A program made the translations under genes and the position numbers. A stretch of 64,000 bases of DNA from contig CAZPVH010000005.1 of the NCBI GenBank assembly GCA_964589975.1, positions 3,612-67,611 of the forward strand, written 5' to 3'. The notes beneath the pieces were generated by a model. It was not told the DNA's origin and made no database searches. It was given only the letters and a program-made list of their open reading frames with translations. Position 1 is the first letter of the stretch. Each line of letters opens with the position of its first letter. Below, in pieces: positions 4,328 through 42,101 of this stretch. This stretch comes from an uncultured Candidatus Saccharibacteria bacterium (GTDB lineage Bacteria > Patescibacteriota > Minisyncoccia > Phycocordibacterales > CSBR16-119).

Positions 4328-5053
4328 ATGAACGAAGAAAAAGCCTTAAAATACTTCGGGCTTACTAATAAAGAATCCGCTGTATATTTGGCGCTTTTGA
4401 GCTTGGGAAGTTCGAATGTTACCGCTATTTCTACTACGGCAAAGATCAAACGTCCGACAACATATCTCATTTTAGAAGACCTCCGGAAGAAAGAATTGGT
4501 TTTGAAAGTCCCCCACGCGAAAAAGGCTATCTATACCGCCGTCGAACCAGATCATTTCTTCCATTCAAAGCTTGGAGATTTCAAAGAAGCCTTCAATGTC
4601 CTGCCAAAACTGAAAGCTCGATACAAAACCGAAGCAAAAGTTTCGACATCATATTTCGAAGGCGAAGAAGGGATAGAAGATGCGTTGTTTTATAAAAAAG
4701 ATGAATTAAAAGATTCTGAAATCGTCGGATTCTTCGCAAAGGGAACAAAAGTTAGCGAAAAACTTCTAGATGTCTCGCACGAATGGCGCAAAGAGATGAA
4801 GAAGCGAAACGTGACGCTCCGCGGTATCGCTCCAGAACACGAGACGCTCGAATCATTCCGTAAAACCGACAAAGATCTTGACCAAGTTTTCAAAAGCGTC
4901 GGTCTGGATGAATATTCATCAGATGTCTCGATAGAAGCCACGAATTCATTCGTCCGTATCGTCCTATTTGATTCGAAACAGGCAATCATTATTGAAAGTC
5001 CGGCTGTTGTGAAAACCGTTCGTGAAATCTTCGAGATGGTCTGGAAAAAATAA
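4328..5053 (+). CDS. TrmB-family HTH transcriptional regulator, paralog 1 of 4
   Basis: N-terminal winged-helix signature (ESAVYLALLSLG...ISTTAKIKRPTTYLILEDLRKKELV) similar to three other ORFs in the window (11446..12192, 19745..20506, 41379..42101). TTGACA-17-TACACT promoter upstream and a terminator hairpin at 5067-5095. Confidence 0.7.
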   Translation: MNEEKALKYFGLTNKESAVYLALLSLGSSNVTAISTTAKIKRPTTYLILEDLRKKELVLKVPHAKKAIYTAVEPDHFFHSKLGDFKEAFNVLPKLKARYKTEAKVSTSYFEGEEGIEDALFYKKDELKDSEIVGFFAKGTKVSEKLLDVSHEWRKEMKKRNVTLRGIAPEHETLESFRKTDKDLDQVFKSVGLDEYSSDVSIEATNSFVRIVLFDSKQAIIIESPAVVKTVREIFEMVWKK

Positions 5054-8833: not shown

Positions 8834-10441
8834 TCACTTGCAGAAGTCTGCGATGAGGCTCGGCACGTTGGAGTCAAACCCAACCAGGTCGAGCATGCCA
8901 GCGTCACTAGGGTCTGCAATACTGAAGTCCGTGGACATCGTAGAGCAGACAACCAGCTTCGCGGGAATGCCCATCTCCTGTCGGTACCGCTTGAGCGCCT
9001 GAGACGGGTGGATTTCTCCAGCCCACGTCTCGTTATCCGTCCAGATCTGAAAAACGTCGACCGGAGTCTTCGCCCTCAGAGCATGGAGGATCGGCAGCGA
9101 GCAGTCGGTACCACCGAAATTGAGACCGTTCACCGCATGCATGTTGTCATCGAGCCTCTTGCGAGGTGAGACGTTCATGTCCTGCAGGCCGGTTCCACTT
9201 CTCCATCCGCGGTCAGCGGAAGTAAAAGCTTTCAGGTGATAGTTGCTTTCGGTCTTCATGACCGCCATGATCATAGCCATTGAGGCCTGCATAGCATTCA
9301 TGAATGGCATCCCAGCAACAGGGCTGTCCCACATCGAGCCGGACACATCCAGTCCGACGAAGATCCTCTTCCCGGTCGCTTCCAGATTCCCGAAGGAACC
9401 GTAGAAAGCGGCGTCAAGAATATCGATCACTCGCTGGACCGGCTTCCAGGTCAATGAGCCGCGCGCGCTCTTCCCGCTTGCGTACGTCACCAGTGCGGCG
9501 AGTACGTTCACAGGGTGGATCCTGGCCTTTTTCAAAGCGACAGGATCCGCGAGCTTCTGCTCGACGACTTTGAGCGCTCCGCTCATCGGCACAATGAGGC
9601 CGTTAGCCGTCATGCGCGCCAAGTTACGAAGCACCGCGGTCATCGGCATACCGGGCAAGAGGGCTTCCCATACCTTCGGGTCGCCGAGGAGCTCGGTTGG
9701 AACGAGCTCCCAGGTTACGCCTTGGTAGTCACCGATGATCTTCACCGCTTCCGCTGCCGTGGTGGCCGCTTGAAGCTTGGTGAAGGCCTCGATGATTTTC
9801 GGGACGCCATCCCCCATCTTTTCCTGAGCCACCCAACGGAACAAGTCCTGGTGCGCTTCGGAAGACGAGTGACTCTTGCGGAGCAGGTCGCGAAGCGACC
9901 AGCCCGAGCGTTGACGATATTTGACAGCTTGGTATGCCAGCTTCTCAGCCGACATGCTCGTCAAATATCCTGCCCAGCCGTTACGGTACTGACGGCTCCA
10001 CGTTCTGCCGAGCTGTTTCGCATTTTCAGCGAAAGCATAGGCGAACGAAAGAGTCCGGAGGACCGCAGGCATGGCCATAAGCGCATACTTCCTGGTTGCC
10101 TCATCGGCAAACTTCGGAGATGCAGCCATGGCGAGGACGAACAGAGCAGGGTCTTGCTTTGCAGCGCGACCCTCCGTCGAAAGTTCGACGACCGTGTCAA
10201 CGACACGCTTTCCGTTCATCTTCAAGCAACGCTGCACGGCTTCGGCATTATCAGTCGTGAGCTCGCGCCCGCCGACGTAGTAGCTGCCGCCGTCGCTACC
10301 AAGGATAATGAACCGCTCAAGGCGCTTCCAATCATCTACCGGGTAAGCGAAACCCCCGGCATTGTTCATCACCATGTTCGATCCTGGAATCGGAGCGTCT
10401 TGTGACGTCCTTTCCGTAGAAAAGTGCTGGGTGTATCTCAT
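8834..10441 (-). CDS. rsr: Ro60-like RNA-binding protein Rsr (TROVE domain with C-terminal vWA/MIDAS domain)
   Basis: N-terminal NNAGGFAYPVDDWKRLERFIILGSDGGSYY matches the conserved TROVE N-terminus of Ro60/Rsr. C-terminal LDVSGSM (a DxSxS MIDAS motif) with downstream T and D residues. GC-rich relative to neighbours. Its 5' leader is the same CA-rich leader used by the adjacent small genes. Confidence 0.8.
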   Translation of the reverse strand: MRYTQHFSTERTSQDAPIPGSNMVMNNAGGFAYPVDDWKRLERFIILGSDGGSYYVGGRELTTDNAEAVQRCLKMNGKRVVDTVVELSTEGRAAKQDPALFVLAMAASPKFADEATRKYALMAMPAVLRTLSFAYAFAENAKQLGRTWSRQYRNGWAGYLTSMSAEKLAYQAVKYRQRSGWSLRDLLRKSHSSSEAHQDLFRWVAQEKMGDGVPKIIEAFTKLQAATTAAEAVKIIGDYQGVTWELVPTELLGDPKVWEALLPGMPMTAVLRNLARMTANGLIVPMSGALKVVEQKLADPVALKKARIHPVNVLAALVTYASGKSARGSLTWKPVQRVIDILDAAFYGSFGNLEATGKRIFVGLDVSGSMWDSPVAGMPFMNAMQASMAMIMAVMKTESNYHLKAFTSADRGWRSGTGLQDMNVSPRKRLDDNMHAVNGLNFGGTDCSLPILHALRAKTPVDVFQIWTDNETWAGEIHPSQALKRYRQEMGIPAKLVVCSTMSTDFSIADPSDAGMLDLVGFDSNVPSLIADFCK

Positions 10442-11445: not shown

Positions 11446-12192
11446 TTATTTGGATCCGCCAAAGGCGAGCTTGAACAAACTTCGGAGCGTTTCAGCCACA
11501 TCAGCGCTTTTTATAAAAATCGTACCAGCATGCTTGCCGAATATGTGAATCCTAACGCTTTCATTGTATATTCCAATTTCCGCTTTTATAGGATATTTTT
11601 CAGGATCTATCCTCTTTCTGTCCATTGTTATATCGGATGTATACTCGCCTTTGGAATATGAGTAGATTGAAACTATTTTTACGTTTTTTTCAATTCTTTT
11701 TTTCTTTACAGGCTCAAGCTCTTTTGGAGTAAAACTCTTCTCCACTTCATCGCGCGGATAAATCACATACATGAGACCGCCTTCTCCTCCGTCAAACATA
11801 TTTCTTGCCGATCGCAGAATCTCTTCCTGACCAGTGTAGTATTCGACGATGGGCCTCTCGCCAAGTCCTCTTGCCACTGCTTTGAATTTCGGGACCATAT
11901 CTTTTACGATCTTCGACTGTTCTGAAAGTTTTATCTTCTGCTCCTCTATATAGCTCTCTATTCTCTCCGGCGGGAGAGCGTGGATGTAAGTTTTTTCATT
12001 TTTCGTTATCTCCTCTACCAAACCTTTTTCAGTAAGAGAATCTATGACTGGATAAATAGTTGTTCTGTTAATTTTAGTTTTTTTGGAAATTTCTGCCACA
12101 TTTGGCTCATCCACCGTCAGCAAGAACATATAGACCTTTGCTTCTTTATCTGACAAACCAACCTCGACGAGAAATTTTTCTAGGTTTTCCAT
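11446..12192 (-). CDS. TrmB-family HTH transcriptional regulator, paralog 2 of 4
   Basis: N-terminus SDKEAKVYMFLLTVDEPNVAEISKKTKINRTTIYPVIDSLTEKGLV. Confidence 0.7.
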   Translation of the reverse strand: MENLEKFLVEVGLSDKEAKVYMFLLTVDEPNVAEISKKTKINRTTIYPVIDSLTEKGLVEEITKNEKTYIHALPPERIESYIEEQKIKLSEQSKIVKDMVPKFKAVARGLGERPIVEYYTGQEEILRSARNMFDGGEGGLMYVIYPRDEVEKSFTPKELEPVKKKRIEKNVKIVSIYSYSKGEYTSDITMDRKRIDPEKYPIKAEIGIYNESVRIHIFGKHAGTIFIKSADVAETLRSLFKLAFGGSK

Positions 12193-12939: not shown

Positions 12940-14019
12940 ATGACTACCGGCAAACCTCCTCCGACCAGAATTCAGATCTTCATAGATGGACGAAACTTTT
13001 ATCATGTAAGCCGACACTACCGCTTCGATCACCCTGTTGGAAGTTTCATCAATCTCCGCGGACTTCAGGGATTCATACGCAAAAAGGTCGCAGAATTTCT
13101 AGGCATGGAACTTGAAGCTGCAACGATCACCAGGTGCCACCTGTTCATGGGAACAGACAGAGATAAAAAGGATGCCTTGCACGAGATCCTTCGAAACCGT
13201 GGCGTTCGACTTCACTGGCACGCTCTCGTAAAAAGAGAAGACGGACAAAAGAAAGAACTTGGTGTCGATGTTGGCTTGGCGACATCCGCACTGTCCGCTG
13301 CCTATGAAGACAAGATGGATGTGATGGTACTGCTCGGCGCAGACGGCGACTTCTACCCCGCAATCGCCCAAGTCCAGCATCTAAAGAAAAAAGTGGTGCT
13401 CGCATTCTGGGATATTCTGCCTTCTCCGAACAACAAGCTCTCGAAGCGCATAACCACAAGCAATTCATTGATACGGATGGCGGATTTCATCATCAATATG
13501 CGCGTGGAGATGAACGCGATGCTGGAAGGGCAAACCGAGGAAGCAAAATTTATCTTCGGGACCAAAGGCGAAAACTTCACCCCGACGGAAAATCAAGTCT
13601 ATCAAGACGTCTCTCCGGTCACTCCGCCAGAGACAACCCAACCACGTCCGCAAAAACCTCCGATCACTCCAGCTCCAACAGTGCACAAGGCTCCCGAGCA
13701 GCCACGTGCGCCCAAGGTAGCTGACAAGAAGCCCGTTCCAACACTGAACCCAAAACAACACGAAAGACGGAAACGAAGAGAGTCTCCGAAGTTCGATACC
13801 ACCAAACAGCGCGGCAGAATCACTCAGAAGAATAACAATGTCGGCTACATTCTCCCGCTTGAAGGAAAAGAACTGATCCCTTTCCTCAAGTATGATCTGA
13901 AACTTACCAACACCGACTTTGACGCTCTCTCTGCCGGATCTTTGGTGGAGTACACAGTTGCCAAGGGGGCCCGAGCCGGCAAGGATCTGGCCACCAACAT
14001 CTGCATCGTACATGAATAA
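12940..14019 (+). CDS. NYN-domain (LabA/PIN-like) ribonuclease fused to a C-terminal cold-shock-like domain, paralog 1
   Basis: IFIDGRNFYH ... GVDVGLATSA ... DVMVLLGADGDFYPAI is characteristic of NYN/LabA. The C-terminus GRITQKNNNVGYILP...FLKYD...GSLVEYTVAKGARAGKDLATNI resembles a CSD/S1 fold. A Pro-rich linker sits between the domains. Confidence 0.65.
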   Translation: MTTGKPPPTRIQIFIDGRNFYHVSRHYRFDHPVGSFINLRGLQGFIRKKVAEFLGMELEAATITRCHLFMGTDRDKKDALHEILRNRGVRLHWHALVKREDGQKKELGVDVGLATSALSAAYEDKMDVMVLLGADGDFYPAIAQVQHLKKKVVLAFWDILPSPNNKLSKRITTSNSLIRMADFIINMRVEMNAMLEGQTEEAKFIFGTKGENFTPTENQVYQDVSPVTPPETTQPRPQKPPITPAPTVHKAPEQPRAPKVADKKPVPTLNPKQHERRKRRESPKFDTTKQRGRITQKNNNVGYILPLEGKELIPFLKYDLKLTNTDFDALSAGSLVEYTVAKGARAGKDLATNICIVHE

Positions 14020-14103
14020 GAAGCGCCGCCCACCCGGGCGGCGCTTTTTGACAAACAACATTTTATAAGTACTATATGTCACAGACAAAACACGTAAAGC
14101 ACC

Positions 14104-14973
14104 ATGAAAACAGACAGCCCTTTGCGCGCAGGGGTGTTTATTGACGGTACATATTTTGGCATCGTAAATAAGCACTACCAAGACCTTCCGGGATTACAAA
14201 AACCAATAGATCATGCCGGGCTACTCTCGTTCCTCCAACGACAAACAGCAGAATTACTCAGTGTCACAAGAGATGGCCTGACTATCACCCGGCGTCACAT
14301 GTATCTTGGGCTCCCTTTAGGAGCAAGCATCTCCAACATGCGATGGCAACAAGAAGCAATGCTCAAAGTCGACATTGATCTCCAGCACTTCCCCATAAAG
14401 AATAACGGCGGAGGAATAGCAAAAGAACAAGGCGTCGATGTGGCATTAGCCTGGGACGCCGGCTACGAGTCTTCGAAACTCGACGTCTACATACTCATCA
14501 CCGGTGATGGGGATTTCATTCCCCTAGTCGATAAGCTGCAGAGTATTGGGAAAAAGGTAATCCTGGCATACTGGCATGTCGGCTCCGAACCGGGCAAAAC
14601 CTCTCGTACCAATACCGACCTCATCAGATCCGCAACACACTCTGTCAACATGAGACAAAAGATAGAGGTTGGCCTAGCGAGCGGAGACAAGCATATCTGT
14701 AAAATCTTCGGCCCCAATCATCAAATACCCGAAGCAAAACCGAAAAAGAATGGCGCACTCGAAATATTCGAAGGAGTCATTCTCTCTCAAACGACAACGG
14801 GGGGCCGCATCAGAAAGATTCCGATCGGAAACAAGAAGAGAACATTGGTATTTTTCAAGGAAGAGGTGGAGGGCGCGCCGTTCAAACACTTTGAACCAGA
14901 TCGCAAGGTTCAATTTTCCATTGTTTACGAAAACAACATGAAACGAGCTATCCACGTAAAGCTCATCGCATAG
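14104..14973 (+). CDS. NYN-domain ribonuclease fused to a C-terminal cold-shock-like domain, paralog 2
   Basis: VFIDGTYFGIV ... GVDVALAWDAGYE ... DVYILITGDGDFIPLV. C-terminus EGVILSQTTTGGRIRKIP...FFKEE...QFSIVYENNMKRAIHV. Same architecture as the upstream gene. Confidence 0.65.
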   Translation: MKTDSPLRAGVFIDGTYFGIVNKHYQDLPGLQKPIDHAGLLSFLQRQTAELLSVTRDGLTITRRHMYLGLPLGASISNMRWQQEAMLKVDIDLQHFPIKNNGGGIAKEQGVDVALAWDAGYESSKLDVYILITGDGDFIPLVDKLQSIGKKVILAYWHVGSEPGKTSRTNTDLIRSATHSVNMRQKIEVGLASGDKHICKIFGPNHQIPEAKPKKNGALEIFEGVILSQTTTGGRIRKIPIGNKKRTLVFFKEEVEGAPFKHFEPDRKVQFSIVYENNMKRAIHVKLIA

Positions 14974-16733: not shown

Positions 16734-16931
16734 AGTCAATTTTTAAAAGCCTAACACTTTTCTATGCGGGTAAGGAGAATCGTCCACAACTCTCGCTGCG
16801 CGAGGTCGCCGGCCCCGCCTCATTCGTCGCCCGCCTGCGGCAGGCCGACATCATTCCGGCTTTCGATTCTCCACGCAGGGCAAGCAGTTGCCCTGCCCTA
16901 CCCGACACATAAAAAGCGAATTTGCTTTTCT

Positions 16932-17002
16932 GTGCGGGTAGGGAGAATCGAACTCCCGTCTCGTCCTTGGCAAGGACGTGTTCTACCACTAAACCATACC
17001 CG
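16932..17002 (-). tRNA. tRNA-Gly (anticodon GCC)
   Basis: Manual fold. Acceptor GCGGGTA/TACCCGC, anticodon stem CGTCC/GGACG with loop TTGCCAA, T-arm GGGAG-TTCGATT-CTCCC. Confidence 0.8.
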
Positions 17003-17089
17003 CAAATTAACCCTGTTACAATATCAATTTTCTCCAATAAATACAAGAAAGCCCGCATTACGCGGACTTTCGGAAAAAAGCTCTGATGA

Positions 17090-17395
17090 TCAGCGTCCCC
17101 ACACCTGATCCTTCAGTCTGTGATAGGAAGGCTCACTGTCTGTAGCAGGGTTCGAGACGAGGTGTTCGTGAAGTGCAACATCAATTTCACAGGTCATGCA
17201 TACATCGCTGTCGGCGCCAAATCCCTGTGACGCCCAACAGTAATTGGACACTCGGGCTGGCTGATGTTCACCAAACAGCCTTGGGAATATGAAGCCATGG
17301 CCAACTTGTATGTGTAGTGGCCAATTTGTAACGTCGCACTGAATTGCGTTCAGTTCTGTTCTTCCACGGGCGATAAAGGTCAATGAGGCTTTCAT
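17090..17395 (-). CDS. Hypothetical Cys/His-containing small protein, 101 aa
   Basis: Clean ORF with C...C and CMTC motifs suggesting metal binding. Family not recognised. Confidence 0.35.
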   Translation of the reverse strand: MKASLTFIARGRTELNAIQCDVTNWPLHIQVGHGFIFPRLFGEHQPARVSNYCWASQGFGADSDVCMTCEIDVALHEHLVSNPATDSEPSYHRLKDQVWGR

Positions 17396-17777
17396 GGTGG
17401 TCGGATTGTTGTTTTCTACATACTATCATGATATTTATCTAATGTCAATTATGTCCTTTATCCCCCTTTCCCACATGTTTGTCCCCAATGTCTCATATAT
17501 TTAGTGAAAAACATTGTGTTGTAAAATAAGGATTTTTTAGTCCACATATGTGGATAACCCTGTTTATAAGGTGTATAAGTATGGTTATTTGTCTTATAAA
17601 CCAAAAAAACTTGTTGATTTATAAGGGTTTTCTGTAAGTGTTTCACATGAAACACTTATTTAGCTCTTATAGTGTTCCACATGTAACTTTGTACTATCCT
17701 TGATATTATAAGTTAAGTAGATTTGTCGATGTTATTCATGAAACATAACAGGATGTCTTTGTGAAAATGAACTAGAT

Positions 17778-18188
17778 ATGAAGACTTTTACATCCAAAAC
17801 TCAGAAAATAGGGGAGATTGGTGAGAAATTGGCCAAAATGTTTCTTATGAAACATGGTTTTGAGATTTTGGAGTCAAACTATACAAAAAAGATGGGGGAA
17901 ATCGATATTGTCGCTAAAAGAGGAGAAATATACCATTTTATAGAGGTTAAGAGTGTTTCCCGTGAAATAGTACCGCTTTCTAAGCAAAGTAATGTTACAC
18001 ATGAAAGCATTGGCTACCGTCCGGAGGAGAATATGCACCAAAAGAAGATAGGGAGGTTTGTCCGGGCAGTAGAACATTACTTGATGGCGAATAACCTGGA
18101 GGTTGAGCACCAGATAGACTTGGCCTTGGTTTACATAGACCAGACTCGAAAGACAGGGAAGGTGAAGCTCCTCGAAAACGTAGTTTAG
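17778..18188 (+). CDS. yraN: YraN-family (UPF0102) endonuclease-like protein
   Basis: 136 aa. GEIGEKLA...GEIDIVAKRGEIYHFIEVK matches the YraN/restriction-endonuclease-like fold signature. Confidence 0.7.
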   Translation: MKTFTSKTQKIGEIGEKLAKMFLMKHGFEILESNYTKKMGEIDIVAKRGEIYHFIEVKSVSREIVPLSKQSNVTHESIGYRPEENMHQKKIGRFVRAVEHYLMANNLEVEHQIDLALVYIDQTRKTGKVKLLENVV

Positions 18189-18234
18189 GGTAATTTCGGG
18201 CTTACTATGCTAATATTCTGAAAAACAGTTTCCC

Positions 18235-18804
18235 ATGAAACAGCTGAAGATTTACGACTTCGATGGGGTGCTGTTCCGGCCTCCAGACTTCTATATCCTT
18301 GAAATGATCGCATTAAAAGAGGTTTCTGAGGTATTGGCATATCGCCTGTACAAAGAAAACCTTGATTTTAGTGAGGAAATGATGGGGGATCCAGCCATCC
18401 GGCCATATTATGAGAAATTTGTTGATCGATATTTCGCCCAAAGAATGAGCCCAGACAGCGTTGCTAGGCTTGAAAGGGAAGCAGAAAGCCAAATCCTGGT
18501 AATTGCTTCTATGAACAATCTGGAAACTATCGAGCGGCATCTAAAACAGTCCGGTGTCAGACATCTCTTTGACGCCATTTACTCGGGAAGTGACAAGATT
18601 TCCAAAAGGGAGATGCTACGGAGGATTGAGCGTCGTTATCGGGCAGACTTCATGTGCTTTGTGACCGATTCAGTAAATGATATAGAGTCAGCAAGGGACT
18701 CTGGCCTCGATTTGAGGATTGAGGCGGTCTTGAGCGGTCAAAGCGATAAGCGAGAGCTCCTTGGATACATTGCCGAAGACCAGATCATTCCAAGCTTCTA
18801 CTAG
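18235..18804 (+). CDS. HAD-superfamily hydrolase
   Basis: N-terminal IYDFDGVL (HAD motif I DxDGxL) and a downstream D-rich motif (FVTDSVNDIESA). Confidence 0.6.
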   Translation: MKQLKIYDFDGVLFRPPDFYILEMIALKEVSEVLAYRLYKENLDFSEEMMGDPAIRPYYEKFVDRYFAQRMSPDSVARLEREAESQILVIASMNNLETIERHLKQSGVRHLFDAIYSGSDKISKREMLRRIERRYRADFMCFVTDSVNDIESARDSGLDLRIEAVLSGQSDKRELLGYIAEDQIIPSFY

Positions 18805-19744: not shown

Positions 19745-20506
19745 ATGACAATTAATATAAACCTCGGGTTAAAAAATAAACTGAAAGACTTTGGGCTACA
19801 TCCTTCAGAAATTAGGTTATATCTTTTCCTATTAGAAAATGGTGTGCAAACTGTGTCCGAAATCTCCAAAGGAACAGAAACACTCAGAACAAACTGCTAC
19901 GGAATCGTCAAAAGCCTTCTGGATAAGGGCCTTGTGCAGTCGCTTAAACAATCCGGGGTAAAAAAATACACAGCAAACAATCCTCAAGCACTGCTAAGGA
20001 GCATCGAAGACAAAAAACGGATGGTCGCCGATGATTTGGTCCCTGAGCTCTTAAATATATTCAAATCACAAAAGAATAAGCCGATTATAAAATTTTATGA
20101 AGGCAAAGAAGAGGTAAAAGAAATATTCCTTCAAATGTATGAGGCAAAAGAAATATTCGGTTTTACATCTACGAAGAAGCTTCTGCCTTTTTATCCTAAA
20201 TTCTTTGTCGAGTGGCGGAGCGAGCTTAAGCGCCGGGGGATATTCTTGAAAGACATGCTTACAGAGTCATCAAAAGACATCGAGGCGAAACAAGTAAAGG
20301 AAGAACTTGGTGTATTTTTTGAAAATAGAATAGTTCCTGCGAAATTTGGCGACGTAGCGTCTGACATTTTGGTGTGGAACGATAATATTGCACTTATTAC
20401 CCTCGATGAGCCTATATTTGGCACAGTAATAAATAATCCGGAATTAGCCCAGACTTTTAGGGTTATGTTTTCTATTATGTGGAGGAGTCTCGGGCAAGAC
20501 CGGTAG
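19745..20506 (+). CDS. TrmB-family HTH transcriptional regulator, paralog 3 of 4
   Basis: N-terminus GLHPSEIRLYLFLLENGVQTVSEISKGTETLRTNCYGIVKSLLDKGLV. The stop codon abuts the left inverted repeat of the mobile element. Confidence 0.7.
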   Translation: MTININLGLKNKLKDFGLHPSEIRLYLFLLENGVQTVSEISKGTETLRTNCYGIVKSLLDKGLVQSLKQSGVKKYTANNPQALLRSIEDKKRMVADDLVPELLNIFKSQKNKPIIKFYEGKEEVKEIFLQMYEAKEIFGFTSTKKLLPFYPKFFVEWRSELKRRGIFLKDMLTESSKDIEAKQVKEELGVFFENRIVPAKFGDVASDILVWNDNIALITLDEPIFGTVINNPELAQTFRVMFSIMWRSLGQDR

Positions 20507-20868: not shown

Positions 20869-21660
20869 TTATGTTCGGGAGCTAACCAAGTTATTTTTCA
20901 AACCCTCTAACATTTTTACAAAATGCACCGTGAACGCAAAAAAGGTATTGAAGTATTCGGCTGTTTCATCGGTCGTAACCCCCTCAATAAACGCAAAATC
21001 ACGGTAGTTTGAGCGTATTCGCATATAGTATGGAAAGTCAAAAATGGACACAGAAAAATTGCTCAAATAGTTTTGGTATTTTGTCTTGTCTGATTTTTTC
21101 TTGAGATTGATTTTATTTGTCTGTTTCCAGTTATCTACTTTGTATTTGGCAATTTTTCTGACTGCCATTTTGTACATATCATCATCTGTCGTCCTTGAAC
21201 TCAAATTAGCTCCACTTGTTACTTTATGGGCCAAAATGGTTTGGTCAAAAACCTGATTCAAAATAGTATTTGAAAATTGGATTTCTTGTGCTTGCAATTT
21301 CCGTGTAAATTCATCAACGCATTTTGTATGTCCTAATTTGAAAATTCCTTTTTGAATTTTGATTACATATTCAACAGTCAAAAGTACATTGAAAATGAGA
21401 TAGTAAGATTTTACAGGTAGCCAAGATGTTGAGGCATATGAATAGTCCTTATCAATATCAACAATCTTTTTCTCGTCGTTCAATGACTTTTTTGTGAGGG
21501 CAATAAGATTTTTCTTTTGATCAATATTTGGCAATCCAGCTTTTTGTATAGAATTATTGTATTGCAAAGTTGTGCCGTTCATCAGAGAAGCAAGGCATTT
21601 GATGTAATTCAAATGCGTATCATATGCCTGATGTTCTGGCGTGTTTCGGAGTAAAATCAT
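20869..21660 (-). CDS. Hypothetical protein, 263 aa, inside the R-M cassette (function unknown; second nuclease or specificity factor is possible)
   Basis: Clean ORF whose stop overlaps the start of the downstream methyltransferase by 4 nt. AT-rich codon usage like the rest of the cassette. Confidence 0.45.
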   Translation of the reverse strand: MILLRNTPEHQAYDTHLNYIKCLASLMNGTTLQYNNSIQKAGLPNIDQKKNLIALTKKSLNDEKKIVDIDKDYSYASTSWLPVKSYYLIFNVLLTVEYVIKIQKGIFKLGHTKCVDEFTRKLQAQEIQFSNTILNQVFDQTILAHKVTSGANLSSRTTDDDMYKMAVRKIAKYKVDNWKQTNKINLKKKSDKTKYQNYLSNFSVSIFDFPYYMRIRSNYRDFAFIEGVTTDETAEYFNTFFAFTVHFVKMLEGLKNNLVSSRT

Positions 21661-22442
21661 TTTGTCTGTGTGGCGTAAGAACTTACGCGATTTCTAGCAA
21701 GGGCGACATATTTTTCATCGCGTTCAACACCTAACCATTTACGACCTAATGCTTCGGCTACAACAGCAGTTGTTCCGCTTCCCATAAATGGATCAAAAAT
21801 GATGTCGCCCTTGTTGCTTGCGGCTAAAACGACCTGCTGTATCAATTTGAGCGGTTTCTGTGTCGGGTGCGCTTTTATGCCATTTCCATCTTTCAATCGT
21901 TCCTTGCCTTTACAAAGACCGAAAACCCAATCTGTATCTTTCATTTGAACGCCGCCATTCAGTTTTTTCATCAAGTCGTAATTGAAAGTGTATTTTTTGC
22001 AATCCTTGTTTTTGACCGACCAAATAAGTGTTTCGTGATTATTTGTAAACCTGCGTCCGTTTAGGTTTGGCAAGGCATCAGTTTTTACCCAAATAACATC
22101 GTTCAAAAACCATAATCCAAGATTTTGCATTATCGTGCCAACGCGAAAAATGTTGTGATACATTCCGATAACCCAAAAAGTTCCTGTGGGTTTCAAAATC
22201 CTTTGGCATTCACTAATCCAAGCGTGTGTAAAATTATCGTAGTCCTCATAACCCTCAAAACTATCCCATTCGTTATCCACAGGTATAACTTCCGAGCCGT
22301 CGGCTCGTTTTAGGCGTTTTCCTTTTGGTAGTTGTAGATAATAGGGCGGGTCGGCAAAAATCAAATCAACGGAATTGTCGGGGAGTTTTTTCATTTCCTC
22401 TATACAATCTCCGTGTATGATTGTGCCGAATAACTTTTGCAT
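21657..22442 (-). CDS. DNA methyltransferase, beta-class (N6-adenine or N4-cytosine), with DPPY before the AdoMet motif
   Basis: IFADPPYYL (motif IV) precedes IIFDPFMGSGTTAVVA (motif I), the circular permutation typical of beta-class N6A/N4C methyltransferases. Confidence 0.75.
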   Translation of the reverse strand: MQKLFGTIIHGDCIEEMKKLPDNSVDLIFADPPYYLQLPKGKRLKRADGSEVIPVDNEWDSFEGYEDYDNFTHAWISECQRILKPTGTFWVIGMYHNIFRVGTIMQNLGLWFLNDVIWVKTDALPNLNGRRFTNNHETLIWSVKNKDCKKYTFNYDLMKKLNGGVQMKDTDWVFGLCKGKERLKDGNGIKAHPTQKPLKLIQQVVLAASNKGDIIFDPFMGSGTTAVVAEALGRKWLGVERDEKYVALARNRVSSYATQTK

Positions 22443-22444
22443 AA

Positions 22445-23566
22445 CTAAAAATTGTAGATAATGAGGTGTTCTACATCTCTATCATTGCGACCTTTGACAT
22501 TGTAGAGATAGGTTTTATCAAACCTATCAATTTTTATGCCTTTCTTATCTTTGTATAAACTAGATATGAACGGTGTGTCTTTGATTATGAGAATAAAATT
22601 TGCCTTCGTATCGTATAGACAATTAGCCAATCGTTGTTGATCTTTTTTATCAAACTCGTTTTTTTCATAATCGCTGAAATCTGTATCGTATGGCGGATCA
22701 AGAAAGATAAAATCTTTTTTTGAGAATTGATACTCATTGAATATGTCCTCAAAATCTTGATTTTTAATATCTGTGTTTTGGAATAGTTTTTTTATTGCTT
22801 CGTCAAAAATATAATCCACTTTTCCGCGAAAATCTTTGCTGTTGTAAGCAATCCCACCATAAGGAATGTTGAAATGCCCGTCTTTGTTGAAGCGAAACAT
22901 TGAACCATAGCAAAACTCCCTTATGAAGTAATAATTTGCAACCTTTTTGGGCAAGCTGATTTTATATCTGCTTCCGTTATAATTCATCACATCGCGAAAG
23001 TGCATATAAAATCCGCTACGAAACGCTGTTTCAATGTTTTTTTGCAAATCACCGTCTGGCAATTTTCCGCGTTGTTTTTCAATCTCTCTGGTGCGAGAAA
23101 TTTTTGATATAAGGTTAGAGGTGATTTGCTTTAATAAGTTTTGCTCGTCCAAACAAAACTCTTTATGAAAAAGTCCATTGAAACGATCTTCTTCTTTTTC
23201 TTGTATTGAATGAACCTGTTTTGATAATTCTTCCCTTGTGATTTTTTCTGCTTTATATTTCTCGTAGAGATTTATTATTTTGTTCTCAAAAATACTGATG
23301 TATTTCGGGATTTTGTCCCAATTATCAACATAATCGTAAAGTTCTTTTTTGAATTGTTCGCGTTGTTTTTGGTCTTTGAGTAGAGAATAAAAATTTGTCA
23401 GTTCGGTATTTATATCGTTGATAATTGCCTTTTTTGGCTTGAGTTGAAAAAAAATTGCGCCACCACCAAAAAACGGCTCGATGTAGCGTTCAAAAGTAGG
23501 AATTAAATCCTTAATGTAGGGATATTCTTTTGTCTTGCCACCCGGCCATTTTATAAGTGGTTGCAT
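22445..23566 (-). CDS. Dam-family (D12 class, alpha-type) N6-adenine DNA methyltransferase
   Basis: N-terminal IKWPGGK (Dam motif) and C-terminal FLDPPYD. 373 aa. Confidence 0.75.
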   Translation of the reverse strand: MQPLIKWPGGKTKEYPYIKDLIPTFERYIEPFFGGGAIFFQLKPKKAIINDINTELTNFYSLLKDQKQREQFKKELYDYVDNWDKIPKYISIFENKIINLYEKYKAEKITREELSKQVHSIQEKEEDRFNGLFHKEFCLDEQNLLKQITSNLISKISRTREIEKQRGKLPDGDLQKNIETAFRSGFYMHFRDVMNYNGSRYKISLPKKVANYYFIREFCYGSMFRFNKDGHFNIPYGGIAYNSKDFRGKVDYIFDEAIKKLFQNTDIKNQDFEDIFNEYQFSKKDFIFLDPPYDTDFSDYEKNEFDKKDQQRLANCLYDTKANFILIIKDTPFISSLYKDKKGIKIDRFDKTYLYNVKGRNDRDVEHLIIYNF

Positions 23567-23567
23567 A

Positions 23568-24386
23568 CTAATTTAGATATGTTGCCTTTATTGAATCTAA
23601 CGCTTCGGTAATCAAGTGCGCGTGTTCTTTGTAGGAATCAAGAACAGTGCGATATCCGTCATCGCTTTTGCATACGAAGTTCCAAAAATCACGACCGATT
23701 AACAATTCGTCATCGGCGAAGAATTGACGCACTCGTTCTTGTCGCCACGGCTTATCCTCGCCGTATCGGTTGTAGGCGGTAGCAAATTTGATATTTATCT
23801 TTTCGTTGTCTGGAAGTGTGTTTGAAAGAATTGCAAACTGCTCCAACAATGCTTCTTTTTCGGAACGCGCCTTTTTGTTATCCAAGTCGCCACCAATTTT
23901 TAATTCAATCAAGAAGTTTTCGCCTGTTTCCTTGTCTATCAAGTAATAATCGCTGTCGTGGCGTTTGACTGATAGATTGTGGTCTGTCGGTTTTATGCGC
24001 AAACTTTGATAATTCTCAACGGTTGGCGGCGCAATTTCACGACGCTTGTATTTTTCAAGCAAATCAGCAATCTTTCCTGTTTGTTCTGGTCCAAGCGGTC
24101 CTTGCACTTCTCGCTTTACCTCGTATGAAAATTCAGCAATACCAATCGCCAGTTTTTCAAGCATATTACCGAGTGAGCTATCAAGGGAACGAACGAGCGC
24201 GGAGTAGTATTGAATGTCTGCACCAAGCGCGGCGATGAAGACATTGTGAATTTTCATATTCAAAGTGCCTTCGGGATTTTCCACTTCGCCCTCGTGTCGG
24301 GCTTGAAAACCTGTTGCATACGATTCGACTGCTGTTTTTACCAGCGACCTGATTGCTTCTTTTTTGTCTAATGTATCTCTTGTCAT
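23568..24386 (-). CDS. Putative Type II restriction endonuclease (PD-(D/E)XK-like)
   Basis: 272 aa. DYYLIDKETGENFLIELKIGGDLD fits a D...(E/D)-x-K nuclease core. Positioned between the controller-protein gene and the methyltransferases. Assignment is by context and motif only. Confidence 0.45.
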   Translation of the reverse strand: MTRDTLDKKEAIRSLVKTAVESYATGFQARHEGEVENPEGTLNMKIHNVFIAALGADIQYYSALVRSLDSSLGNMLEKLAIGIAEFSYEVKREVQGPLGPEQTGKIADLLEKYKRREIAPPTVENYQSLRIKPTDHNLSVKRHDSDYYLIDKETGENFLIELKIGGDLDNKKARSEKEALLEQFAILSNTLPDNEKINIKFATAYNRYGEDKPWRQERVRQFFADDELLIGRDFWNFVCKSDDGYRTVLDSYKEHAHLITEALDSIKATYLN

Positions 24387-24391
24387 AATAG

Positions 24392-24601
24392 TTATTTTAA
24401 TAGTTGATCTACGCTCACTCCAAGCACTTTGGCGACCTTTTCCATTGTGCTAATTGTAAGATTTTGTTTGCCGTTCTCGACATTGCTAATATATGCTCGG
24501 TCTAATCCTAACTCTCGGCAAATGTCGCCCTGCGACATTCCTTTTGCTAGGCGTATCTTCTTCATATTTTCGCCAAACTTTTGTGCTGTGCTTTTAGCCA
24601 T
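24392..24601 (-). CDS. XRE-family HTH controller (C) protein of the R-M system
   Basis: 69 aa. IRLAKGMSQGDICRELGLDRAYISNVENGKQNLTISTMEKVAKVLGV is a classical Cro/C1-type HTH, placed first in the cassette as in C-protein-regulated R-M systems. Confidence 0.7.
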   Translation of the reverse strand: MAKSTAQKFGENMKKIRLAKGMSQGDICRELGLDRAYISNVENGKQNLTISTMEKVAKVLGVSVDQLLK

Positions 24602-24697
24602 ATTTTATAAAAACTTATCAACACCTTTATTCTACCATTTTATTGTGTTTTGACTCAATGTTAAGTTATAATACAAGTGTGCAAAACATAAGTTTTT

Positions 24698-24898
24698 ATA
24701 TGAAGCGGCGACGGCAAAACCAAAAATTTCCTTCCTTTCAAATTTTCCGCCTTGCGGCGGGGGGTGTGGGGGGAGCCGCAAATAAAAAATGTGGGAAATT
24801 TTTGGGCTTTGCCCCGCGCGAGCTTGCCGAGCGCGGGCGAGGCGCAGTCCTTAGTTTCGTTCAAAATGGGTTCGAGCAGAGTTATATAATTCCACCAA
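24698..24898. repeat. IR1-R: right copy of the 201-bp inverted repeat
   Basis: Reverse complement of 20507-20707. Overlaps IR2-L by 6 bp (CACCAA). Confidence 0.85.
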
Positions 24899-25006
24899 TA
24901 TCAAACTTTCCGATTTTTTGCCGACTGATTCAGCCGCGCGAAGCGCGGAAAGATGAGGAAAAACAGGGTCGCCGCGCAGGGCGCGGCTCCCCAAGCGGAG
25001 GTTCGA
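24893..25006. repeat. IR2-L: 114-bp perfect inverted repeat, left copy (partner 26439-26552)
   Basis: Shown by duplicated peptide segments (NLRLGSRALRGDPVFPHLSALRAAESVGKKSESLILV) in opposite-strand ORFs. Contains GC-rich hairpins (CCGCGCGAAGCGCGG and GCCGCGCAGGGCGCGGC). Confidence 0.85.
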
Positions 25007-25046
25007 AATCCCTTGCGATTTTAAGTATTTGCTTTGCCTTATGAAT

Positions 25047-26615
25047 ATGGAACAACATAAATTTTTCCTATACGCCCGCAAGTCCACCGATGTGGAGGAC
25101 AAGCAGGTTTTGAGTATTGAAGCGCAGATCACAGAATTGCGCACTTTTGCCAAACAAAATGACCTCGCCATTATTGAGGAACTGACTGAGAAACAATCCG
25201 CCAAAATTCCAGGTCGTCCGATATTCGGCGAAATGATAAAGCGTATTGAAAAGGGCGAGGCGGACGGAATTTTGGCTTGGCACCCCGACAGATTGGCGCG
25301 CAATTCTGTGGACGGAGGCAAGGTCATTTATCTCATAGATTGCGGGCGTATCGCGGCGTTGAAATTTCCTCAATTTTGGTTTGAGCCAACGCCGCAAGGA
25401 AAATTTATGTTGAATATCGCTTTTGGGCAAAGTAAATACTATGTGGATTCTCTTTCCGAAAACACGAAGCGTGGTTTGCGTCAAAAAGTCCGACGCGGAG
25501 AATATCCGAGCGTTGCGCCCATTGGCTATATCAACGATGTGCGGACGAAAAGTATCGTGGTGGACAGAAAGAAAGCGAAAGTTATCCGCGAAATGTTTGA
25601 ATTTTACGCCACTGGCAACGCTCGGCTGGAAGATGTATCGGACTTTTTGGCGAAACGCGGGATACATTCCCGCGGCGGAAAGAGAATCCACAAGACGAGG
25701 GCGACTTTTATCCTTTCCAATCCGTTTTATACAGGATTATTCCGCTACGCTGGCGAATTGCACGAGGGAAAGCACGAGCCAATCATTACAAAGAAACTTT
25801 TTGATACGGCGCAAGCGGTTTTGAAAGAGCGCGGTAAGCCGCAACGCAAACCGAAGAATGAACCGCAAGCGTTTTGCGGTCTAATTGCTTGCGCCGAATG
25901 CGGAATGATGATAACTGGCGAATACAGGGTTAAGAAGCAGAAAAATGGCAATACGCACGATTATACTTATTATCACTGCACCAAGAAAAACAAAGCGGTG
26001 AAATGTTCCCAACCTTGTATTCGCCAAGAGGAACTGGACAGCCAGTTATCATCACTTATTCAAAAAGTTTCTTTGCCTGCGGATTGGGCGGAAAAATTGC
26101 TGGAAATGGCAGAACGAGATAAAGAGCAGTCCGCCCAATCCGTCTCTGCTTTTGTTCAGGAAGCCGAAAACAAAATCCGCGCCATAAATATCAAACTCCA
26201 GCGTCTGCTAGACGGCTATTTGGAGCAAGACATTGAGCGCGAAGTGTATCGCGAGCAAAAAGCAATTTTATTGTCAGAGAAAAAGACGCTGGAGGAGAAA
26301 ATGGCGCGGATTGAACAAAAGCAGAATGATTGGCTCGAACCTTTCCAAGATTGGATAAAAGTCGCTTCAAACCTCGTCAAAATCGCAAGGGATAACAACC
26401 TTTTGGAGAAAAAGGTTGTTGCCAAAGAAATCTTTGGCTCGAACCTCCGCTTGGGGAGCCGCGCCCTGCGCGGCGACCCTGTTTTTCCTCATCTTTCCGC
26501 GCTTCGCGCGGCTGAATCAGTCGGCAAAAAATCGGAAAGTTTGATATTGGTGCGGGATAGGGGAGTCGAACCCCTCACCAGAGTTTGGAAAACTCTTATT
26601 TTACCGATAAACTAA
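25047..26615 (+). CDS. Large serine recombinase (resolvase domain, recombinase domain, zinc ribbon and coiled-coil)
   Basis: N-terminal FFLYARKSTDVEDKQVLSIEAQ (catalytic Ser in the Y-x-R-x-S-T context). Mid-protein Cys cluster CGLIACAECGMM...YYHCTKKN. Long C-terminal coiled-coil. The last approximately 38 codons lie inside IR2-R, and the 3' end overlaps tRNA-Gly(TCC) on the opposite strand. Confidence 0.8.
   Translation: MEQHKFFLYARKSTDVEDKQVLSIEAQITELRTFAKQNDLAIIEELTEKQSAKIPGRPIFGEMIKRIEKGEADGILAWHPDRLARNSVDGGKVIYLIDCGRIAALKFPQFWFEPTPQGKFMLNIAFGQSKYYVDSLSENTKRGLRQKVRRGEYPSVAPIGYINDVRTKSIVVDRKKAKVIREMFEFYATGNARLEDVSDFLAKRGIHSRGGKRIHKTRATFILSNPFYTGLFRYAGELHEGKHEPIITKKLFDTAQAVLKERGKPQRKPKNEPQAFCGLIACAECGMMITGEYRVKKQKNGNTHDYTYYHCTKKNKAVKCSQPCIRQEELDSQLSSLIQKVSLPADWAEKLLEMAERDKEQSAQSVSAFVQEAENKIRAINIKLQRLLDGYLEQDIEREVYREQKAILLSEKKTLEEKMARIEQKQNDWLEPFQDWIKVASNLVKIARDNNLLEKKVVAKEIFGSNLRLGSRALRGDPVFPHLSALRAAESVGKKSESLILVRDRGVEPLTRVWKTLILPIN
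26439..26552. repeat. IR2-R: right copy of the 114-bp inverted repeat, ending inside the tRNA-Gly 3' CACCA
   Basis: Reverse complement of 24893-25006. The final 5 nt are the tRNA 3' C-A-CCA. Confidence 0.85.
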
Positions 26616-26621
26616 TCCCGC
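26548..26621 (-). tRNA. tRNA-Gly (anticodon TCC), CCA encoded
   Basis: Manual fold. Acceptor GCGGGAT/ATCCCGC, anticodon stem AGAGT/ACTCT with loop TTTCCAA, T-arm GGGGT-TCGACTC-CCCCT, then ACCA. Confidence 0.8.
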
Positions 26622-31290: not shown

Positions 31291-31488
31291 GAGAGGGAGT
31301 ATATACTAGACATAAAAATAAATCAATGCGTGGTGAGCGAAAGTTGCGAGAAAAAATTAGAGTCGTGTATAATTCAATCCACGTTCAGAGTTTTCCACAG
31401 CAATCCACACGTTGTTCACATTTTCAAAATTATCCCCAGAAAAGTTCTGCGTATATAATATCTTTCATAATATTTTAAATCTTTAACT
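31291..31488. promoter_or_regulatory. dnaA upstream region with a DnaA-box cluster (part of the origin region)
   Basis: TTTTCCACA (31390-31398), AATCCACAC, TGTTCACAT and TTATCCCCA are close to the TTATNCACA consensus. AT-rich. Confidence 0.5.
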
Positions 31489-32835: not shown

Positions 32836-33064
32836 TGTGGATAAAGGGTTAATGGAGTGAGTAAGAGCTTGGGGAGAGAATTTGAAAACTTTAGAGCAAT
32901 CCAGAGTTTTACCCAAAAGCCAGAAGTTCTTTTGAGTAAGGCGATAGTTTTACCCAGGCGATATTTCTGAAAAACCTCTGATAACAAAAGACATAACGTG
33001 GTTATACACATCATCCACAACCCTAATAGTAATAGTAGATTTAAAAGAGAATATAAAAGAATAA
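32836..33064. promoter_or_regulatory. dnaA-dnaN intergenic region: putative oriC core (DnaA boxes plus an AT-rich unwinding element)
   Basis: TGTGGATAA (32841-32849, a perfect box in reverse complement), TTATACACA (about 33000-33008, perfect) and CATCCACAA, followed by AT-rich TAATAGTAATAGTAGATTTAAAAGAGAATATAAAAGAATAA. Confidence 0.5.
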
Positions 33065-41378: not shown

Positions 41379-42101
41379 ATGGAGGAAATAGAATATCTAA
41401 CGCGACTTGGACTATCGGAAAAGGAGGCGAAAATCTATCTCACGCTCATTGGCGAGGATTCTCTTTCGCTTCTTGAGCTGTCTCGAAAAACCGGCATTCA
41501 TCGTCCGGCGTTATACACGCTGCTTCCAAGGCTCGAGGCCAAAGAGTTGGTGCAAAAACGAAAGGTTGGGAAAAGAGAACAGTATTCTGCCGAGTCGCCA
41601 AAGAAAATTGAAAAGCTGTTCAAGAAAGTCGAGTCGGGGCTACACCTATTCGTTGATCGTTTGAATAACGAATACGAAAGCCGCGGACGAAAGCCGACCG
41701 CGCAGTATTATTTTGGAAAAAACGGCTATAACTATCTTTTTGATGACATCGCTGCTTCTGTGCCTAAAAACGGCATCTATTATCGCTACAGCGCTAGGCG
41801 CGTCGATGAAAAATTTTTCACACCAACGGATTATTACCTAAAGACACGCGAGAACAAGCGCTTTGAAAGGAGAGTAATTACAAGCACTGCCAAAACTAAG
41901 GGGAAGAGTAATCGGCTAGAGAGAGAAATAAAAGCCATACCGTCGAACGTGGATCTATTTGATGACAATGTCTCGTCGTATATCTACGCTGACAAAGTCG
42001 CCTTCGTCGACTTCGACACCCAAACAGTCTTTATCCTGACATCTAAAAAGATCGCCGACTTCCAGCGGAAGCTCTTCGAGATGCTTTGGAAGAGACTATA
42101 A
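41379..42101 (+). CDS. TrmB-family HTH transcriptional regulator, paralog 4 of 4
   Basis: SEKEAKIYLTLIGEDSLSLLELSRKTGIHRPALYTLLPRLEAKELV. Confidence 0.7.
   Translation: MEEIEYLTRLGLSEKEAKIYLTLIGEDSLSLLELSRKTGIHRPALYTLLPRLEAKELVQKRKVGKREQYSAESPKKIEKLFKKVESGLHLFVDRLNNEYESRGRKPTAQYYFGKNGYNYLFDDIAASVPKNGIYYRYSARRVDEKFFTPTDYYLKTRENKRFERRVITSTAKTKGKSNRLEREIKAIPSNVDLFDDNVSSYIYADKVAFVDFDTQTVFILTSKKIADFQRKLFEMLWKRL

Follow-up and report, generated by a model that had tools for sequence, protein, structure and literature searches.

A 64,000-nucleotide stretch of contig CAZPVH010000005.1, from an uncultured Candidatus Saccharibacteria bacterium (the window, as this whole stretch is called below), carries directly upstream of yraN a non-coding region, 17440-17775, in which DnaA boxes and sites of the parS type are joined in a single module. 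The motifs of this module recur at fixed spacing throughout the Paceibacteria, the class of the Candidate Phyla Radiation to which we assign this tiny genome, its parS-like sites are exclusive to the locus, and it overlaps a local switch in strand composition. We consider, with a probability of about one half, that the module is a DnaA-box cluster proximal to the replication origin (oriC) and fused to a parS centromere, DNA unwinding taking place at a basal unwinding system (BUS) located in the dnaA-dnaN spacer. An earlier note, made from the letters of this DNA alone, had proposed an origin-related, non-coding element predicted to bind DnaA and separate from the clusters flanking dnaA, and our results support this part of its proposal.

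Anatomy of the yraN module

As the earlier note had seen, the region is an AT-rich gap upstream of yraN, 14 kb away from dnaA: it contains 69.6% AT, compared with 54.3% across the window, yraN (Pfam UPF0102) occupying 17778-18188 on the plus strand and dnaA starting at 31489. The region lies between yraN, itself followed by a HAD hydrolase gene, and a small leftward transcription unit (ORF101), beyond which the genes for tRNA-Gly(gcc), tRNA-Arg and the CCA-adding enzyme are all on the minus strand. When known RNAs were searched for in 16900-17900, tRNA-Gly alone was matched.

The module is anchored by a predicted high-affinity DnaA box at 17549-17557 on the minus strand, a perfect match that reads TGTGGATAA on the plus and TTATCCACA on the minus strand. 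A perfect box within the palindrome CCACATATGTGG (17542-17553) had rightly been noticed before, although at about 17547-17555 rather than at its actual position. This palindrome is formed by the main box and a weak inverted box with 2 mismatches, TAGTCCACA (17538-17546, plus strand), and the related locus L003 carries TTACCCACA-TA-TGTGGATAA at the position equivalent to this pair. Two other weak boxes with at most 2 mismatches, TGTTTATAA (17561-17569) and GGTGTATAA (17570-17578), are arranged in tandem with the main box on the minus strand (17561-17578), at steps of 12 and 9 bp. They face opposite to a left array (17458-17487) of three weak boxes on the plus strand, in the TTATCCACA orientation and with 2 mismatches each, which consists of TTATCCCCC (17458-17466), TTTCCCACA (17467-17475), already listed as a box-like site by the earlier note, and TTGTCCCCA (17479-17487); the closest relatives (L004, L005 and L006) share this three-box array. 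The spacer between the facing arrays (17488-17548) is 60 bp long and 75% AT. The module totals one perfect box and six boxes with 2 mismatches, and the best-scoring 150-bp stretch of the 64 kb for DnaA boxes is 17412-17561, with 7 boxes (≤2 mismatches) over a background of 0.54 per 150 bp. The module thus contains a DnaA-box cluster such as characterizes an oriC.

The second component is parS, whose chromosomal consensus is TGTTNCACGTGAAACA (PMC7022226). A perfect 24-bp palindrome (17635-17658) contains a parS site, TGTTTCACATGAAACA (17639-17654), with one mismatch to this consensus, and many relatives carry perfect copies. Degenerate parS-like sites are found at 17673-17688 (TGTTCCACATGTAACT), where L004-L006 and L011 carry two adjacent ones at the equivalent position, and at 17730-17745 (TGTTATTCATGAAACA), and parS-like sequences continue inside yraN and at the yraN/HAD junction (17839-17854, 17954-17969 and 18227-18242). 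A second box-like site of the earlier note, TGTTCCACA (17673-17681), is present and overlaps TGTTCCACATGTAACT. Its paired motifs, TTTCACATGAAACAC (17641-17655) and TTATTCATGAAACATAAC (17732-17749), are present as well, but their identity as parS sites had been missed. The window's four parS-like matches are all within 17639-18242, for 0.27 expected. As is typical of parS, the site at 17639-17654 is a 16-bp palindrome matching TGTTNCACGTGAAACA, and the sites are few in number and clustered in the origin domain.

Conservation of the module and of its motifs

A scan with the CCA-adding enzyme yielded 77 loci from metagenome-assembled genomes (MAGs) of Patescibacteria labelled Paceibacteria, Nomurabacteria or Vogelbacteria. 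The divergent CCA-enzyme/yraN arrangement is found in 58 of the 77, and the module is located between the CCA-enzyme/tRNA genes and yraN in every one of these (58/58); the array, whose conservation in relatives belonged to the refutation criterion of the earlier note, is thus kept in all 58 relatives examined. All 58 loci possess a DnaA box upstream of yraN on the window's strand, mostly 165-340 bp away and perfect in 46 cases, and this conservation reaches down to 49% CCA-enzyme identity. The class-wide core consensus anchored on the box, TGTGGATAAct.TGTt.gTAatGtt.ATAA..GAC, corresponds to one strong and two weak boxes.

An unbiased 8-mer enrichment, in which 56 sites were compared with their flanks, brought out four classes of motif whose offsets are fixed and whose enrichment over flanks is 30- to 250-fold. 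The first is the DnaA box itself, taken as offset 0. The second comprises TAAAGGAC (+27), its reverse GTCCTTTA (about -45) and TAAAAGAC (about +100); the third is AAATAAGG, placed at +83 and about -20, and the fourth is parS, as GTTTCACGTGAAAC, at +127. This fixed multi-motif architecture extends over ~250 bp. A rearranged version was observed on the metagenome contig L119 (10,354 bp), where the DnaA-box array TGTGGATAACTCTGTTGATAATGTTGATAAAGGAC is inverted and lies 2.6 kb upstream of dnaA, and where the CCA-enzyme gene and a parS cluster are downstream of dnaN.

As to the parS component, 52 of the 58 loci have a parS-like site (≤2 mismatches) within 0 to +600 of the box, and parS core 8-mers are found in 37-41 of the 56 sites, for 0.15-0.28 expected. 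Throughout the yraN-centred related loci (954 kb), all 173 parS-like matches fall between -2.9 and +1.0 kb of the box, none being found elsewhere in the +/-10 kb flanks, and the dnaA-centred loci (919 kb) contain parS solely in the company of yraN or the CCA-enzyme gene. Since, in these 1.9 Mb of related sequence, parS-like matches are confined to the yraN locus, this locus is the parS cluster of these chromosomes. Most relatives also carry recurrent parS-like palindromes (≤2 mismatches) in both flanking coding sequences, that is in the CCA-enzyme gene (-600 to -2900) and in yraN (+200 to +600), from which it follows that the centromere spans ~4 kb and constrains coding sequence.

The remaining motifs bracket the boxes. 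An exact copy of a 10-bp motif, ATAAAGGACA (TGTCCTTTAT on the plus strand), is found at 17452-17461 on the minus strand and is a putative half-site specific to the lineage. In relatives, GTCCTTTA is present in 30 of the 56 sites (0.45 expected), at an offset of -43 to -53 from the main box. This ATAAARGACA motif was rejected as a general companion of DnaA boxes, as it is absent from 62 dnaA-dnaN spacers and almost absent upstream of dnaA. About 60-100 bp left of the main box, in L008, L009, L011 and L012, two copies of the lineage-specific motif meet head to head and form a perfect palindrome of 20 bp, ATGTCCTTTATAAAGGACAT, which suggests a dimeric DNA-binding protein. Degenerate copies of the GTCYTTTAT form are found on the minus strand at 17489-17498 (TGTCTCATAT, aligned with TTTGTCTTTTAAAA and TTTGTCTCATAAAA in L004-L006) and at 17590-17599 (TGTCTTATAA, aligned with TGTCCTTTAT and TGTCTTTTA in relatives).

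The AAATAAGG motif, present in 29 of the 56 sites (0.82 expected), has two copies on the plus strand of the window, TTGTAAAATAAGGATTTTTT (17519-17538) and TTGTTGATTTATAAGGGTTTTCT (17611-17633). In the clade of the window, the AAGGA core of the first copy ends at a constant distance of 16 nt ahead of the main box, as seen in the window itself, L004, L005 and L012; L006 and L008 have variant cores at this distance, and in loci of the Nomurabacteria type the core is mostly 11-13 nt ahead of the main box. Most relatives carry the motif at ~+83 from the box, in an inverted orientation in L003, L017, L024 and L074. The possibility that it could be the yraN promoter was rejected, owing to its poor hexamers and to these inversions.

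The heptamer TTATAAG, which the earlier note had counted five times, has four exact copies, three on the plus strand (17564, 17619 and 17706) and one on the minus strand (17593), and one near copy, GTATAAG (17573, one mismatch); there are no five identical direct copies. Four of the 16 TTATAAG matches of the whole window fall within 150 bp. These heptamers are fragments of the weak boxes (TGTTTATAAG and GTGTATAAG; the boxes at 17561 and 17570 contain two of the copies counted earlier), of the AAATAAGG motif (the third TTATAAG is in TTGTTGATTTATAAGGGTTTTCT) and of the GTCYTTTAT variant (the minus-strand copy is in TGTCTTATAA). As the longest sequence common to the copies is 9 nt, and as Tandem Repeats Finder detected no array in the region (score ≥30), the heptamers are not iterons, and the iteron array proposed by the earlier note is thus replaced by weak boxes and two other conserved motifs.

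The only other exact copy of ATAAAGGACA in the window is fused to the first box of another pair of one-mismatch DnaA boxes, at 53074-53101 (within AGTGGATAAAGGACAttgtTGTGGAAAA), in a 430-bp gap (52731-53165) that also holds GC-rich hairpins. The window also encodes four paralogous regulators of the TrmB family (4328-5053, 11446-12192, 19745-20506 and 41379-42101), and many relatives encode a TrmB homologue at a distance of 2-5 kb from the yraN module. These regulators could be candidate binders of the ATAAARGACA half-sites, as could HU, which is pure conjecture.

The dnaA-dnaN unwinding element and the composition switch

In the definition given by Pelliciari et al. and Richardson et al., a BUS combines two tandem boxes with a GC spacer, a series of DnaA-trios and a tract rich in AT, the DnaA box or boxes being followed, after a spacer of at most 16 bp, by at least three DnaA-trios (3'-NAN-5', ideally 3'-GAT-5') and an AT-rich DNA unwinding element (DUE) (PMC8287927). 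A canonical BUS, overlooked by the earlier note, fits this definition cleanly in the dnaA-dnaN spacer of the window (33002-33064, plus strand): two tandem boxes, TTATACACA (33002-33010) and TCATCCACA (33011-33019), are followed by the GC spacer ACCC, by the trios TAATAGTAATAGTAG (33024-33038) and by a tract of 85% AT up to the dnaN start codon. Its gene context is classical, rny, jag, yidC and rnpA diverging from dnaA-dnaN. It is retained in every close relative (L003, L005, L006, L008, L011 and L012) and, among 62 non-redundant dnaA loci of Paceibacteria, is present in almost every one. Four tandem DnaA boxes, TTTTCCACA, AATCCACA, TTGTTCACA and TTATCCCCA, are located upstream of dnaA (31391-31438, plus strand), where boxes at 39-bp spacing recur in L003, L005 and L006. 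The yraN module is a third box cluster, separate from both dnaA-side clusters even in L142, in which yraN directly precedes dnaA.

The module is only ~1 kb from dnaA in L141 and L142, and eight genomes have the two 5-7 kb apart; in the window they are separated by 13.7 kb, and in most other loci by >10 kb. The distance from the module to the BUS is 15.5 kb in the window and about 1-3 kb in L142. Several DnaA boxes are thus found outside the unwinding region and near the origin, as in the DnaA-box clusters (DBCs) discussed below. The gap contains a low-GC (36%) restriction-modification island (20869-26621), which encodes two DNA methyltransferases (N6_N4_Mtase and D12 class) together with a restriction endonuclease of the TdeIII type. 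After these comes the gene for a large serine recombinase (25029-26615), which overlaps at its 3' end tRNA-Gly(tcc) (26548-26621). This island, which makes up ~6 kb of the module-to-BUS gap, is probably an integrated mobile element that has doubled the distance between the yraN module and dnaA.

With one module at the composition flip and a textbook unwinding element 15 kb off, beside dnaA, this group seems to carry two origin-type modules. We prefer to consider the yraN module as an accessory cluster because the BUS is highly specific, clearly selected and in its classical context, and because close analogues exist. The oriC-proximal DBCs of Bacillus subtilis, including DBC[thdF-jag], restrain initiation, in synergy with Spo0J/parS (Okumura et al., 2012, PMC3245932). 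Like them, the yraN module groups its boxes away from the unwinding region, within a few kb of rpmH-rnpA-yidC-jag/dnaA-dnaN on its jag side, and is intergenic between divergent genes. It differs from them by its fusion to parS and to two further conserved motifs, by the class-wide preservation of its sequence and spacing, and by its coincidence, in this lineage, with a composition switch. According to the account of Caulobacter crescentus given in PMC6667618, which cites Mera et al. (2014), DnaA binds parS 8 kb from ori. The layout here is similar, with putative DnaA sites at a parS centromere several kb from the origin (5-15 kb instead of 8 kb), and might by analogy offer a way to couple initiation and segregation. 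Compared with what that account describes, the boxes of the module, whose binding by DnaA we infer from sequence, are of consensus type, in ordered arrays and class-wide, and neither ParB, ParA nor PopZ was identified in the sequence available here. The oriCII cluster of Pseudomonas aeruginosa, described below, is a further analogue. Finally, bipartite origins flank dnaA in B. subtilis (incAB/incC), Helicobacter pylori (oriC1/oriC2) and Clostridioides difficile (PMC6669920, PMC8287927, PMC3479198, PMC7561715). The yraN module resembles canonical and bipartite oriC by its DnaA-box cluster, AT-rich DNA, composition switch and divergent transcription, and the distal box region of a bipartite origin can cooperate with the unwinding region by looping; the separation is however 5-15 kb here, whereas the halves of bipartite origins are approximately one dnaA gene apart.

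DnaA would dock on the box at 17549-17557 and oligomerize over the two adjacent weak boxes; in the clade of the window, it would also fill the facing three-box array ~60 bp away. ParB, presumably encoded outside the window, would load at 17639-17654 and at the weaker sites spreading into yraN, thereby marking the centromere and probably recruiting SMC, and a putative factor would bind the ATAAARGACA half-sites that bracket the boxes. DnaA docking and ParB loading at one module would therefore couple DnaA availability and initiation timing to origin segregation, the unwinding of DNA itself most likely taking place at the dnaA-dnaN BUS, 15.5 kb downstream.

Several observations weigh against this interpretation. 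The motifs GERRxRA and KGGxGKT, by which ParB and ParA were sought, are absent from the window and from 2.05 Mb of related loci, and no ParBc or ParA Pfam match was obtained among 40 window ORFs; as no gene for ParB or ParA came to light in these sequences, binding of ParB is deduced from its putative sites. The skew evidence, furthermore, directly favours a replication start at the module, which an accessory cluster does not explain. In the window, the cumulative GC-skew minimum is at 17114 and not at dnaA-dnaN, where the earlier note would have expected it if the region were a fortuitous AT-rich promoter; the curve is flat over 18-33 kb and rises afterwards. A weighted change-point fit with gene strand as a covariate places the switch at 16-17 kb, for total as well as third-position skew, with only a small secondary dip at 33 kb. 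When ~59 loci are stacked on the box, all twelve left 1-kb bins are negative (-0.02 to -0.15) and all eight right 1-kb bins are positive (+0.03 to +0.15). This sign flip also holds in the 49 loci without dnaA within 10 kb, and the shift survives splitting genes by strand and keeping third-codon positions only. At the level of single loci, 23 of 32 yraN-centred loci display a positive step >0.08 at the site. These tests rely on short flanks (3-10 kb) of genomes that are related and syntenic, on ORFs called by a simple script and on a strand correction that was kept fixed, and raw per-locus cumulative skew minima were left aside, since they are confounded by local divergent genes. Several loci with a positive step have both flanks positive, which hints at a contribution of gene content, and no correlation was found between site 'quality' and skew step at yraN loci.

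The 12 genomes containing both modules point in the same direction, as their intermodule zone resembles the right replichore: the GC skew at third codon positions (GC3 skew) is -0.21 on the left, +0.03 between and +0.01 on the right for plus-strand genes, and -0.04, +0.11 and +0.16, respectively, for minus-strand genes. The coding-strand GC3 skew of jag, yidC and rnpA is -0.15, -0.19 and -0.10 in these two-module genomes, as against 0.00, +0.06 and +0.06 in dnaA loci without a nearby module, so that these genes look head-on in the former and co-oriented in the latter. On a 615-kb contig (L163), the top-strand GC3 skew is zero or negative for the four genes left of the module and positive for nearly all larger genes from yraN rightwards, HU and dnaA being about 0. 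Per-genome fits favour the module in 8 of the 12 (the window, L003, L005, L006, L008, L142, L163 and L164). The fits point to the BUS for L011, L084 and L086, which carry both modules and constitute the exceptions to the coincidence of the module with the composition switch, their own switch being at dnaA-dnaN.

Other evidence points to dnaA-dnaN. Pooled dnaA loci without a nearby module flip at dnaA-dnaN, and the complete Nomurabacteria genome CP064958.1, in which yraN is not nearby and the yraN module was not located, displays a sharp skew flip at dnaA/dnaN. A correlation was found between BUS quality and the shift in skew seen at dnaA (n=24, rho 0.41, p 0.046). In five loci (L125, L138, L128, L129 and L137), the BUS of the dnaA-dnaN spacer is weak or missing and dnaA shows no origin-type switch, so that the origin is apparently not always beside dnaA in this class. 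Flank-gene homology gave no overlap when used to join both modules in loci where they are >10 kb apart, and the DnaA and CCA-enzyme homologue contigs of 54,829 and 54,801 bp, tried as one contig, turned out to be different. As a separate observation, in CP064958.1 (L159) and L168, where yraN is not near dnaA, the place to the left of jag-yidC-rnpA, at 0-8 kb from jag, is taken by a cluster resembling type IV secretion genes and encoding PrgI, a TraC-like protein, a TraG P-loop protein and a peptidoglycan-binding (PG-binding) protein.

The main alternative, which we consider less likely than not, takes the module itself as a site where replication starts, whether as the working oriC of the lineage or as a second origin beside the dnaA-dnaN BUS. 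DnaA filaments from the two facing arrays might then open 17488-17548, with forks diverging there and parS directly at the origin. The positions of the skew minimum and of the change point in the window, the stacked flip in all its versions, the agreement of the three-zone and ortholog-controlled tests, the gene-by-gene profile of L163, the per-genome fits in the window's family and the lack of a switch at dnaA in the five loci of weak or absent BUS all argue for it, as do the rank of the module as the densest DnaA-box cluster of the window and the transcription of tRNAs and genes, which diverges from it. The R1 box of E. coli is oriented towards the DUE, and both arrays of the module would, by this rule, point to the spacer. 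Unlike a canonical oriC, however, the module has neither a convincing trio run nor a distinctly unstable DUE. The triplets next to the main box, 5'-TAA AAT AAG GAT-3', are on the correct side and strand after a 15-nt spacer, but only one of these four NAN triplets fits 5'-TA[G/A]-3', and a chance run is likely in AT-rich DNA. The 30-mers of the module spacer are at about -32 to -33 kcal/mol and the BUS is at -28.6 (99th percentile -30.7); the former are thus not unusually unstable, and helical stability is no discriminator. Against a start at the module also speak the well-formed BUS at 33002-33064, kept in its classical context 15.5 kb away and in relatives, the three genomes that carry the module and yet flip at the BUS, and the limits of the skew tests given above, including a possible effect of gene content. 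To our knowledge, two active origins on natural bacterial chromosomes are not established.

A related and rather doubtful proposal is that the two origin-type modules, the ancestral dnaA-dnaN BUS and the yraN-linked DnaA-box/parS module with its accessory motif ATAAARGACA, are separable and fire in a lineage-dependent manner, or both fire; in the family of the window, forks would then diverge at the yraN module, the BUS being retained but not the main start.

It is improbable that the region is only a divergent promoter or operator, at which DnaA would act as a transcription factor for yraN and/or for the genes of tRNA-Gly, tRNA-Arg and the CCA enzyme, while ordinary regulators would use the remaining motifs as operators and nothing in the region would serve replication or segregation. 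Promoter-proximal boxes do allow DnaA to regulate genes in many bacteria, as at oriCII of Pseudomonas aeruginosa, a DnaA-box cluster upstream of gidAB-parAB that DnaA uses for regulation (PMC13438810). Like oriCII, the module is a second origin-resembling box cluster near the true origin and a partition locus; unlike this promoter element preceding gidAB-parAB, it has no adjacent par genes and contains parS itself. The module is moreover always between divergent genes, a good leftward promoter (17448-17420) overlaps its left edge, and TrmB-family regulator genes are frequent neighbours. No rightward promoter of the sigma-70 type was however detected for yraN, and a promoter explains neither the canonical parS and its exclusive clustering, nor the fixed multi-motif architecture over 250 bp, nor a composition switch over +/-10 kb.

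The 'datA/DARS-like' role suggested by the earlier note is a mere analogy. The datA and DARS sites of E. coli are defined by IHF-dependent DnaA-ATP hydrolysis or ADP release, together with specific box arrangements. They are, like the module, chromosomal DnaA-box clusters outside oriC, and they modulate the DnaA pool, but they are devoid of parS and have no sequence relationship with the module.

Finally, two readings can be dismissed, a chance AT-rich region and an iteron-type origin left by an integrated and since decayed plasmid or phage, the latter being close to what the earlier note had proposed. The region does resemble iteron-type plasmid origins in being AT-rich, with a DnaA box and short repeated words, and at a distance of 3 kb there is a mobile island that encodes a serine recombinase, but the region has no tandem repeats and a longest shared repeat of 9 nt instead of at least three direct repeats of ~17-22 bp, its neighbours (CCA-adding enzyme, tRNAs, yraN and HAD hydrolase) include no Rep gene, a search of the module against 72,556 plasmids and 50,697 phages gave no match, and it occupies the same syntenic chromosomal place in 58/58 genomes of one class, with motifs 30- to 250-fold enriched over flanks.

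Neighbouring genes and meaning of the module

ORF101 (17090-17395, minus strand), which has no Pfam match, possesses a promoter with a near-consensus extended -10 (17448-17420; TTGACA, 17 nt, TG-n-TAGTAT) and an intrinsic terminator (17071-17047). It was not found in the related genomes, its sole other occurrence being on a 100%-identical 2.8-kb Logan contig (L001). Owing to its own promoter and terminator and to its absence from relatives, it was treated as a separate lineage-specific unit and rejected as part of the module; it is a lineage-specific small gene or RNA inserted beside it. Farther to the left, 8834-10441 encodes a Ro60/TROVE-vWA protein. Bacterial Ro orthologs usually adjoin Y RNA genes, and no Rfam match to a Y RNA at gathering threshold was obtained anywhere in the window. 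Two tandem paralogs with an NYN domain are encoded at 12940-14973, the first one having a proline/lysine-rich C-terminal extension and a strongly negative GC3 skew, and relatives also have NYN genes to the left of their CCA-enzyme gene.

Each type of element described here, DnaA boxes, parS and accessory DnaA-box clusters, is already known singly. What is new is their combination in a fixed module of DnaA boxes, parS and accessory motifs, which is kept across a class of the Candidate Phyla Radiation and uncoupled from dnaA and the BUS, and which marks the composition switch in many genomes. No description of this module, nor of Paceibacteria origins or centromeres, was found in the literature searched, and we know of no experimental study of origins and centromeres in the Candidate Phyla Radiation.

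With its ~250 bp, its fixed spacing and its class-wide distribution, the module is a defined and testable DNA element, which could anchor MAG assemblies and replication-rate estimates of the iRep type. Its ATAAARGACA half-site points to a candidate lineage-specific protein binding the origin or the centromere. Finally, strand composition and the canonical unwinding element disagree by 5-15 kb, and do so reproducibly, which makes these genomes a test of origin prediction: either the calling of origins from skew is biased near centromeres, or origin function moves between DnaA modules.

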